A DNA stretch of 64,000 nt from Phycisphaerae bacterium (GTDB lineage: Bacteria > Planctomycetota > Phycisphaerae > UBA1845). The stretch covers positions 768,001 to 832,000 of the forward strand of contig CAXXGO010000001.1 in the NCBI GenBank assembly GCA_963666835.2. Direction: 5' to 3'. Position 1 is the first letter of the stretch. Each line of letters starts with the position of its first letter. This document shows, one piece after another, positions 32,201-35,200 of this stretch. The position numbers are program-made.

Positions 32201-35200
32201 GTCTACCGCGGGGTACAAGCCCGGCATGCCCGTACTGTCGCCATCCCGATGGCGGAGTCGTCTTCGTACCGGTCCACCGCCGATCTCGCGTAAGGCTCCG
32301 TTTGCGGGTATGGGCTATCAGGGTCGACCGGGCGACCCTCCACCACCGACACGGCCGGCGGCCAAGTTCCCTATCGCCTGCACCGGCAACCGACTTCCCA
32401 GGCAGGACCTCTTGTGGGGGGGGTATGCCCTTAACCTATTGCTTGCGCGAAGGTTGTCGGTTGTGCGCCGTCTTGAGAGACTGGGGATCCGGAGTCTCTG
32501 TGGCTGTCCTGAGCGGGCTCCCGGGAGTTGGACATACCTGTCGGCCCCGGCGGGTGCGTCTTCCTCGGCCGACCTTTTGCTCGCCTCTGTTGTAAGCCCG
32601 TGCAAGAACTGCGTGGTCGATGGAGGAGGATGATCTGCGCGCGCCGGGGACGTGCTTCCTTGCTGCGTTCGCCCTGGGTTTCGTTGTTGGACCTTCGGCG
32701 TTGGGCACGTCCCTCACTTGCCGGAGCTCGGGAAGGCGTCACTCGGCTCTGCTCGACCTTCGGCATCAGGAACGAGGCTCGCCTTCCAGCGTGGGCGACG
32801 GTAACGCTGCATGCAACGTGCCTCCGTGTAGGCGAATAACGTAATCTTCTACCGCGGCTTGGGGGCATCGGTCATGTGATCTGAATGTGCGGTCCGCTGC
32901 CATCTGTAGAACCCTGTCAGGGTTCGATGAGCTCAGTTGTCCGGACACCCAGGGTGGCGCTTCGCGGCCGCGCCGCGGCGCTTACCCTGGGCTTTGTTGT
33001 ATAACGCCTTCGGCGTTGGTTTCGCGGGTGGTCCGGCGAAGGCAAGCAAGATGTCCCGTGAGAGTACGCTGTATAACGCCTGCAGAGTAAGGGTATGGCG
33101 GTCGAGTGCGGGCCATGCAATGACCGTGCGTTGCAGTTGAGTTGTCGAACACTTGCGGCTGGGGCGCGGCCGTCGAGGCGATGTTTACGTGCCGAAGTTG
33201 GATCGTGGAGCGCTTGTTGCGGTTATTGTGTAATTCGTGATACGCGATTGCCTATTGGCTGCGTTGCGGTTGGGTACTATCCGTGTTACCGTTTTCTGGA
33301 CTCAGGAATTCGGTTATGGATGTCCTGGTTGCTGCGAGCCTCTGTCCTTCGGCTGCCTTGCCGTTCGGTTGCTCTGCCTGCCCCGAAGGGGCAGAACAGC
33401 AAAGCCCAGGGTCGCGCAGCGCACCCTGGGGCGGTGTTTACACAAGTGCCACAAACCCCGAAGGGGTTTCACGGGGCTGAGTTATGCCACAATCGTTAGT
33501 TCAGATCTACGTCCACATCGTATTCTCGACGAAGCATCGCAAGGCCTTTTTCGTGGACAACGAGTTCTGCCGCCGTACTCATCGATATTTTGCGGGCATC
33601 TGCCGGAACCTGGGTTGGCCGGCATTGGCCGTCGGCGGCACGGAGGATCATGTTCACATTCTTTGCAGACTCGGAAAGACCGGTGATGTCGCAGGTGTGA
33701 TCCGCGACCTGAAGCGCGATTCCTCGAAATGGGTCAAGGTCGAGAGACCGATCCTCGGGGACTTCCATTGGCAACAGGGTTACGGGGCATTCTCAATCAG
33801 CCCGTCACATGTCGCCGCGCTGATAGAGTATATTACGCACCAAGAAGAACATCATTCACGTGAGACGTTTCAAGAGGAGTTCCGGCGTTTATGCCAGAAG
33901 TACGGCCTGGAGATTGACGAACGGTACGTTTGGGATTGACATTGCGCGGTCAATGGCTGAACGCACCGGATGAAACGAATTGCACATTCGGCGACGTGGA
34001 GGCATCGGCCGTGTGATCGGAATGTGCGGCCCGCGGAAATCTGTAGAGCCCTGTCAGGGTTCGATGAGCTTGATCGATCGGGCCCCCAGGGTGGCGCTTG
34101 GCGGCTACGCCGCGGCGCTTACCCTGGGCTTTGTCGTATAACGCCGGCGTTGGTTTCGCGGGTCGTCTAGCGAATGCAAGCGAAACACGTCAGCAAGGGG
34201 GCGTTGTATAAGGCCTTCGGTGCCAGGGGCGCGGCGTGAGTCAACACGAGACCCAGGATAGCCGACCAGTCAAAAACGGGTCTGGTGGGCGCTTCCGTTC
34301 GTCGGCGCTCAAGGCCCGCTATTGTGCCTCCAGTCGTGCCTTCGTGGCGGCAAGGGCGGCCTCGAACTCCGGAAGCCGCATGAACTCCACATGCCCGTCG
34401 AGGAAGGCGACGTTTACGCCCTCGCCATCGTTCAGTTCGCGCCGTTCATACAACACGACGTTGCGATAGTCTCCAGCCTCGGTCTGGCCGGCAATGTACA
34501 CGTAGCAGTCTCGTCCGCGCTGGTGCTTCGGGGACTTCAACATATCTGCGGTGAACGCGCCTTCATCCACCAGGGTTTGGAGATTGGGCGGCCACTGCCC
34601 GTCGTGGTCGTTGGCGTATATCGTGCAGGAGGTGACAATACCCCTCATGTTTGACTGGCTAACCAGTCGCTTAGACAGTTCCCGAGCTCGGGCAAGTGAC
34701 GGGAGCAGGACGGAAACAAGCATGGCCGTAGTGCCGGCGCTGCCGTTAGATCCCAGCGCCGGAACCGGGAACGGAAGCGGTCCATAAGACGTATATAGCA
34801 TGCCCTGGCTGTCGCAACGCGCGTTGGACAAGTCGCTGAACAGGTGCTTGGTCAGCGCCGTGCGCGATGGAAGCGCGCCGACGTTTAGTGAACCGCCCTC
34901 ACCCTGCCAGATCGCCAAACCGGTTTGAGCCAGCGGCAGAACGACGGAGTAGCCTTCCTCGGCTCCGCTCTTGGAGTCCATGAACGAGAGGCTTGCGCCG
35001 AGCGGGCCGATGTGCTTTCGGCCGCGAACGAAGTCGGGATTGGCCAAGATCGAGTCCGTCTTCGGATTGGCGTCAAGAAGGCGATTGATTGTATTGCGGA
35101 CCACCTGGGGGTACAGGCCGACGATCATCCAGTCGTTATGTGCGGCCCAGGCCGGGGCAACCGGAACGGGCGCGCCCACTGCGTTTACGAACTCGATCCG

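Follow-up and report, generated by a model that had tools for sequence, protein, structure and literature searches.

The Acido-Lenti-1 motif (RF01687), which Rfam lists as a small RNA of unknown function, is most probably a DNA repeat able to form hairpins; it lies around the genes of one little-studied group of Y1 (single-strand-DNA) transposases and also spreads in their absence. We analyzed a window of 64,000 nucleotides from the genome of a Phycisphaerae bacterium together with the rest of that genome and homologous loci in others, and the reading that we consider likely is that Acido-Lenti-1 represents the outer two-thirds of a three-hairpin, single-stranded DNA end belonging to Y1 transposases of subclass 1.2, the dispersed doublets of such ends being nonautonomous. 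The strand on which the end works is probably the one opposite to Rfam's annotation. The motif is listed as a probable RNA ('y') in the portion of Weinberg et al. 2010 (PMC2864571) cited here, and its function is still given as unknown in the quoted part of a 2026 preprint. Our search of the literature on Acido-Lenti-1/RF01687 and on Y1, IS200, and RAYT elements found no paper that links the motif to Y1 genes, although the flanking-gene supplements of Weinberg et al. may mention such a link. The survey's finding on this window had tied a dispersed DNA repeat with REPIN-like inverted doublets to a Y1/HUH gene, and both the locus and the genome-wide counts bear this out.

The 151-aa Y1 gene that had been claimed is present as an open reading frame (g00612; Table 1), with an ATP synthase operon on one side and a 740-aa ORF on the other, and the three modules reported around it were recovered at about 32948-33016 (+), 33380-33430 (-), and 34085-34150 (+). 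Their layout had been described as two hairpins; the module has three, in the order C-A-B, and besides the third hairpin that earlier reading lacked the strand signal and the hitch-hiking in DDE-type MITEs described below. The RF01687 model matches the reverse strand of the left end (33430-33379) with 30.7 bits, against a gathering score of 37, and the similarity of this end to the copy at the paralogue g00209 begins at about 33373. The second copy of the right-end region lies head-to-head with the left end, an arrangement that is repeated at g00209; DNA contigs of four of the six sequencing runs listed contained no clean empty site, the sole contig joint spanning 33032-33373 being a match of the g00209 locus. 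Modules do flank both paralogues, as had been claimed, but g00209 is truncated (88% DNA identity with g00612), and g01247 has one doublet and one degenerate arm on its flanks and no clean inverted pair. A fourth, decayed paralogue (C7:35098-35415) bears an arm of one dispersed family, which it fits better than g00612 does. Exact ends of g00612 are rare in the genome and related subfamilies abundant; since its own left-end hairpin has just two near-exact copies genome-wide, the dispersed families do not evidently descend from g00612.

Table 1. Features of the g00612 locus and one solitary repeat arm (positions in the window)
Feature	Position	Strand	Remarks
Solitary dispersed arm	7924..7985	-	subfamily F2b of the same module
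Second copy of right-end region	32854..33047	-	194 nt with 84.5% identity to 33991-34181
Second copy, hairpin C	32909-32925	-	
Second copy, hairpin A	32948-32991	-	
Second copy, hairpin B	33004-33016	-	intact
Left end, overall	33373..33469	+	B', foot, A', C' in that order
Left end, hairpin B'	33380-33392	+	GAA loop
Left end, foot AAAG	33401-33404	+	
Left end, hairpin A'	33405-33430	+	
Left end, hairpin C'	33453-33469	+	GAA loop
tnpA (g00612)	33484..33939	+	151-aa HUH/Y1 transposase, putative TnpA-Y1 subclass 1.2
Right end, overall	34046..34150	-	inverted counterpart of left end; predicted working strand, minus
Right end, hairpin C	34046-34062	-	
Right end, hairpin A	34085-34128	-	branched
Right end, hairpin B	34141-34150	-	loop deleted

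The g00612 protein carries DHVH at positions 55-58, W96-Q97, and Y116---Q120--HH124 (YITHQEEHH), and its C-terminal tail ends in DERYVWD. It scores 81.8 bits against Pfam Y1_Tnp, passes the NCBIfam IS200 TnpA model (59.3 bits; cut-off, 55), and fails the RAYT model (22 bits; cut-off, 80). A profile of 35 homologues matches the TnpA chains of ISDra2, IS608, and relatives and gave no match to E. coli TnpA-REP, and IS200-family structures rank above 4ER8 in comparison with the predicted structure (pLDDT 94.5). In a FastTree phylogeny of 46 sequences (24 of the 72 homologues, 4 IS200, and 18 class 2), the homologues form one clade beside IS200, and class 2 is set apart with a support of 1.0; g00612, which is without the Y---NP motif, falls outside class 2. 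Judged by published motifs and by our own tree (clade support, 0.80), the protein would fit TnpA-Y1 subclass 1.2, whose signature we took from Table 1 of Quentin et al. 2018 (PMC6006769). As in the cited parts of that description, DH[IV]H, WQ, and Y---Q--HH are found, the length is about 150 aa (151 aa against about 148), the C-terminal tail is conserved, and gene copies are few and of low identity within a genome (diverged paralogues, 29-95% identical). Whereas those parts assign no REPs to subclass 1.2, inverted three-hairpin ends are the rule here, and the distribution of the genes reaches far outside Cyanobacteria and Bacteroidetes.

Across the Phycisphaerae genome, a strict structural pattern identified 131 modules, whereas two shuffled versions yielded 4 and 7, and profiles built from these strict modules retrieved 268 arms at E<=1e-3, partial arms counted in; the 80-100 copies estimated earlier are thus too few. 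As had been stated, the copies are mostly intergenic (127/131), the remaining four lying within genes at the chance rate under our home-made gene caller. Inverted doublets, 25 of them F2 and 18 F1 (the two main subfamilies), are dispersed through intergenic DNA, as REPINs are, and the dispersed copies lose their mutual similarity at about the outer edge of hairpin B. The small hairpin has a 5-bp stem and a 3-nt TTC loop, its triloop classes comprising 44, 30, 27, and 7 copies; the pattern NNNCC-TTCG-GGNNN proposed in its place occurs at only eight unrelated sites. The tetranucleotide CTAC, said to be usual after the first hairpin, follows hairpin A in 58 of the 131 modules (GTAG foot on the opposite strand), but the three modules at the g00612 locus have CTTT in this position. 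All six DUF1670 elements are inserted in the small hairpin of the repeat, which agrees with its description as their insertion target.

The association between gene and motif extends over many genomes. One set of 151 genomes from the window's phylum was queried both with the protein and with RF01687 (37 candidates scored per genome for the motif); the gene was found in 39, the motif in 45, and both in 36, so that the motif accompanies the gene in 36 of 39 genomes and occurs in 9 of the 112 without it. Among 121 Acidobacteriota the corresponding numbers are 27, 34, and 25 (25/27 with the gene versus 9/94 without); the genome at the center of this comparison had been picked because the gene is present, and one of the motif-only genomes (G203) is unpublished. 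Because the genomes are related, we give counts instead of significance, and even these overstate independence. The motif is carried by 7 of 75 genomes that have a match to the RAYT model and no subclass 1.2 gene, and in some genomes where no subclass 1.2 gene was detected there are 16-32 matches (G012 and G016, which are 93% and 94% complete). At the level of loci, 21 of 29 homologue loci have an RF01687 match no farther than about 200 nt from the gene; the model also hits 12 of 20 loci that were chosen for phylum spread out of 80, and it scores above 37 bits at many homologue ends. By comparison, class 2 RAYT loci gave 0 of 20, and the class 2 loci of the present genome 0 of 5.

The full end consists of three hairpins in fixed spacing, with mostly 29-32 nt from the center of C to the start of A and mostly 19-21 nt from the end of A to the center of B. 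In a first collection of 72 loci this module was detected on both sides in 41, on one side in 17, and on neither in 14 (at least one side, 58/72); in a second collection of 80 loci from many phyla, the numbers were 28, 20, and 32 (at least one side, 48/80). As controls, none of 60 distal windows showed the pattern, and one of 16 RAYT loci did; in this comparison, locus L171 is a duplicate of L017. Under inspection by eye, most of the 26 misses viewed out of the 32 in the second collection show the module with an AT-richer hairpin A, and it is likewise visible in the AT-rich Bacteroidota misses. Among 173 gene-flanking modules the foot reads TTAG in 33, ATAG in 25, GTAG in 22, AAAG in 18, and TCAG in 18, the NNAG form being partly imposed by the search anchor; a GTAG REP would have GT[AG]G at its 5' foot and a single palindrome of 20-40 nt, in place of GTAG in only 22 of 173 feet and three hairpins. 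Each paralogue has its own specific ends: 32 of 41 genes have the same A stem on the left and on the right, but only 7 of 104 paralogue pairs share it. In one genome (G154), the doublets are the left and right end modules of its own tnpA, and the 20 that we fetched measure 176-194 bp.

Alternatively, the modules may indeed be the ends of Y1 genes and yet have dispersed mostly by hitch-hiking in MITEs moved by DDE transposases, with the Y1 enzyme doing little, an explanation that we consider unlikely. A case in its favor comes from the genome G138, in which the commonest doublet sits inside a 250-bp unit bounded by TIRs, with about 120 TIR matches genome-wide; TIR pairs were present at 19 of 25 loci, and 13 of these 19 doublet units show 9-bp target duplications (control, 0/19), so that a DDE enzyme moved those doublets. 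In the genome G077, an IS256-family element has ends resembling this TIR; an IS256 transposase bearing the exact G138 TIR was not found. Outer inverted repeats, which we take to be IS5-like, occur on 7 of the 32 Blastocatellia doublets examined, five of the seven having direct repeats of 2-3 bp, and some F2 doublets of the present genome are enclosed by other inverted repeats. Given these MITE cases, part of the doublet spread is DDE-driven. What speaks against hitch-hiking as the main route is that the outer TIRs change by lineage while the inner module follows the Y1 gene, that the other 25 of the 32 Blastocatellia doublets have no TIR pair, and that none was seen by eye on doublets of three further genomes (G012, G115, and G052). 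Direct repeats at hairpin B in the flanks of the 20 G154 doublets are no more frequent than in mismatched pairs, with one exception of 10 nt. That cleavage in G154 has a fixed CT boundary was also considered and rejected, as just 7 of 25 ends show CT where they appear to stop; this apparent edge is more plausibly an outer TIR.

We then consider the type of molecule and its strand. The calling of hairpins B and C took no account of loop sequence, and of 124 distinct small hairpins read on the Rfam strand, 73 have a TNC center and one a GNA center, with non-Watson-Crick closings on the same strand (C.A, 15; G.T, 2); on the opposite strand, the small hairpins have GNA loops, some with a T.G closing. 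According to the part of PMC13037366 cited here, GNA mini-hairpins are exceptionally stable as DNA and much less so as RNA. In the RF01687 seed, where 53 of the 54 rows examined derive from one genome, many of them in tandem arrays, about half of the rows have an A.C mismatch in stem A by eye. Loops and mismatches together favor DNA on the strand opposite to Rfam's; standard DNA folding energies fail to separate the two strands. It is quite improbable that Acido-Lenti-1 is instead a genuine small RNA or RNA element, for instance one that regulates the transposase or ends transcripts, even though its stems covary strongly, 48 of the 97 spacers that modules occupy lie between convergent genes, against 325 of the 2,122 spacers longer than 150 nt, and copies downstream of genes are expected to be transcribed often. 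DNA hairpins predict the same covariation (hairpin A is partly misregistered in the covariation alignment, which inflates the unpaired counts), and an RNA would have to accommodate triloops with frequent C.A closings on the Rfam strand. The fourth pair of a UNCG register is kept in only 9 of 55 cases, the triloop register having been selected for, and 100 or more copies lie in both orientations and symmetrically around one transposase clade. Relative to transcription, 22 modules are sense and 29 antisense, which amounts to no strand preference.

The gene is under purifying selection, with a dN/dS of 0.04-0.21 across 14 cross-genome pairs (0.38 for g00612 versus the truncated g00209), and flanking genes are held in common by 7 of the 14 closest cross-genome pairs. 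Within genomes, identity stays below 95% in all 123 paralogue pairs and exceeds 80% in three, and the gene is found on 2 of 72,556 plasmids (both large) and on none of 50,697 phages. These observations make it very improbable that we are dealing with an ordinary IS200 insertion sequence (subclass 1.1) and its ordinary MITE derivatives, although the protein passes the IS200 model and has its nearest structures in the TnpA of ISDra2 and IS608, g00612 and g00209 are so similar in DNA, and one insertion of a gene together with its ends was observed. A true IS200 in the genome G103 is present as five identical copies, whereas near-identical multicopy genes and frequent occurrence on plasmids are both missing here, and the ends are inverted, unlike those of the IS200 elements inspected. 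The insertion concerns the G154 gene, which with both ends (about 745 bp) is missing at the syntenic site of G276; in three further relatives no gene was observed next to the matching flank. The gene therefore moves occasionally, but since the G154 gene unit has degenerate versions of the outer inverted repeats, this insertion may not be the work of the Y1 enzyme. For doublets, no base-resolved empty site was found; two G154 doublets sought in five relatives yielded none, the flanks not being syntenic. Finally, a canonical RAYT with GTAG REPs, in line with the RAYT-type label given earlier, is exceedingly improbable: despite the inverted doublets, the few gene copies, and the GTAG foot frequent in this genome, Y---Q--HH, the RAYT-model score, and the position on the IS200 side of the tree rule it out for g00612, the foot is variable, and the genome's canonical RAYTs sit at other loci flanked by different, classical GTAG REPs of their own (623 half-sites in one family).

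The account of Acido-Lenti-1 as a transposase end builds on the observed anatomy, the gene-motif association, the end specificity of each paralogue, the strand bias, the purifying selection, and the single gene-plus-ends insertion; by analogy, we infer that the subclass 1.2 enzyme would cut these ends. An end would read 5'-B' (GNA loop)-about 8 nt-foot NNAG-A'-about 22 nt-C' (GNA loop)-3', the two ends being inverted around the gene, one per strand, and gene-less doublets of the same two ends would form the nonautonomous, REPIN-like units. In the passages of PMC8266576 cited here, the enzymes TnpA-REP and IS608 TnpA bind the hairpin of one strand, and a 5' tetranucleotide selects the cut. On the model of these two systems, the subclass 1.2 enzyme would bind the folded end, the foot would direct Tyr116 to nick the DNA outside hairpin B', and the ensuing strand transfer would copy or move doublets and, rarely, the gene. 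In some lineages there is a secondary spread inside DDE-type MITEs. As to origin, the top strand of one true IS200 left end, a single case, presents a GNA hairpin, 13 nt of spacer, and a hairpin of larger size, and this similar layout suggests that the ends arose by inverted duplication of an IS200-like left end.

The system is real, probably works like a REPtron with its REPINs, and is not a RAYT. In common with the RAYT/TnpA-REP (class 2) systems, as described in the cited parts of PMC8266576 and PMC3733652, cognate palindromic repeats lie on the flanks of the gene and abound in other parts of the genome, inverted doublets are dispersed, repeat families are gene specific, and residence in the lineage is long; theirs, however, is a class 2 enzyme and ours class 1, their repeat is one hairpin of 20-40 nt and ours three spaced hairpins of about 90 nt, and their foot is fixed (GT[AG]G) and ours variable. 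With the TnpA of IS200/IS605 elements (IS608 and ISDra2), the protein shares fold and catalytic core, but those elements have identical copies and a single strand on which both ends are read, whereas our ends are inverted and duplication of the gene is rare. The RF01687 model of Weinberg et al. (PMC2864571, in the part cited) covers the same sequence family, is without hairpin C, and probably represents the nonworking strand. The class 3 REPs in the cited part of Table S1 of Quentin et al. (PMC6006769) were considered as the same repeat and set aside, their sequence being different. By its description, subclass 1.2 is likely identical with IS200 Group 3 ('RAYT-like') of Bertels et al. 2017 (PMC5581495), an IS200-family group for which the passages cited report that duplicates are lacking, that plasmids carry none, and that flanking 16-mers are abundant, the repeats themselves not being described in those passages; the cited part of Quentin et al. 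2018 (PMC6006769) states that subclass 1.2 was not described by Bertels.

It is tempting to go further, with some reserve, and to speculate that subclass 1.2 constitutes a second REPtron-type system, present in many phyla and separate from the RAYTs, in which an IS200-class enzyme came by an element that has an IS200-like left end in two inverted copies, stopped copying itself, and maintains gene-specific doublets of GNA-capped, three-hairpin ends; it might then be an intermediate between IS200 and RAYTs, with a rule of foot-guided nicking that can be read from natural variation. If the reading of Acido-Lenti-1 as a transposase end is true, an abundant Rfam 'sRNA of unknown function' would be reassigned to mobile DNA, and to the other strand. 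An orphan transposase subclass reported to have no substrate would gain one, the abundant flanking repeats of the RAYT-like IS200 group would be explained, and many natural pairs of enzyme and end would become available for cleavage tests in vitro. The repeat is, in addition, a landing site for other elements, and the system bears on the origin of REP-type repeats from IS200 ends.

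Doublets, the inverted pairs of Acido-Lenti modules (RF01687 repeats) that hold no gene between them, can themselves be carried inside other inverted repeats. The cargo of the 250-bp MITE of G138 is one entire doublet, and some doublets of Blastocatellia are enclosed by a second type of outer TIR, unrelated to the first and accompanied by 2-3-bp direct repeats; at L339 this second type surrounds a single hairpin, not a doublet. Within the genome under study (G000), two further kinds of inverted repeat enclose arms of the module subfamilies F2 and F3 in nested mosaics, and these enclosing repeats terminate inside other hairpins, such as the GTAG REP of the RAYT (class 2 TnpA-REP) at C1:1403446. 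Members of the larger GTAG REP family lie no more than 300 nt from 63 of the 131 strict Acido-Lenti modules of this genome.

Repeat-associated features and their locations
Feature	Location	Details
MITE, 250 bp	G138 loci L183-L208	TIRs ~21 nt; 9-bp target duplications
Second outer TIR type	L304, L312, L342-L344, L339	Blastocatellia
Nested mosaics, 300-700 bp	G000 C1:68619-69224, C6:1908906-1909521, C1:1451724-1452230, others
Canonical RAYTs, two	G000 C6:1295431 and C1:1403446	Separate GTAG REP family for each
Tandem array, 312-bp period	G000 C6:1905568-1907185	F1 arms alternate with GTAG REPs
Short tandem repeats of flanking DNA	L144:1290-1370; L262-L264, L268; L302, L308
DUF1670 element, two ORFs	G000 C1:155666-157085 and five more copies (L354-L359)

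Short tandem repeats of the flanking DNA extend outward from the ends, and the 17-nt host sequence adjoining the G154 insertion (a Y1 gene with both ends) is present in triplicate. In G103, a true IS200 (L286) shows at its left end the GNA hairpin-spacer-hairpin layout of B'-A', two of the three hairpins of the module end as read on the strand opposite to Rfam's. Two subclass 1.2 genes from different genomes (L025 and L073) are less than 64% identical and have the same upstream gene, which suggests replacement or a preferred site. Elsewhere in G000, a Y1 domain (C6:2222173-2222388) lies in frame within a 997-aa ORF, and by eye the sequence around it resembles a DNA methyltransferase. The Acido-Lenti motif has been associated with group II introns. 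A group II intron is located at L100:2777-2972, 0.8 kb away from the closest homologue.

The modules also receive an insertion of their own. All six copies of the DUF1670 element in G000, nearly identical to one another, sit at the same position in hairpin B of an F1 arm, flanked by CT at either side and with their inverted repeats subterminal. Taken together, this looks like a site-specific element whose target is the Acido-Lenti repeat.
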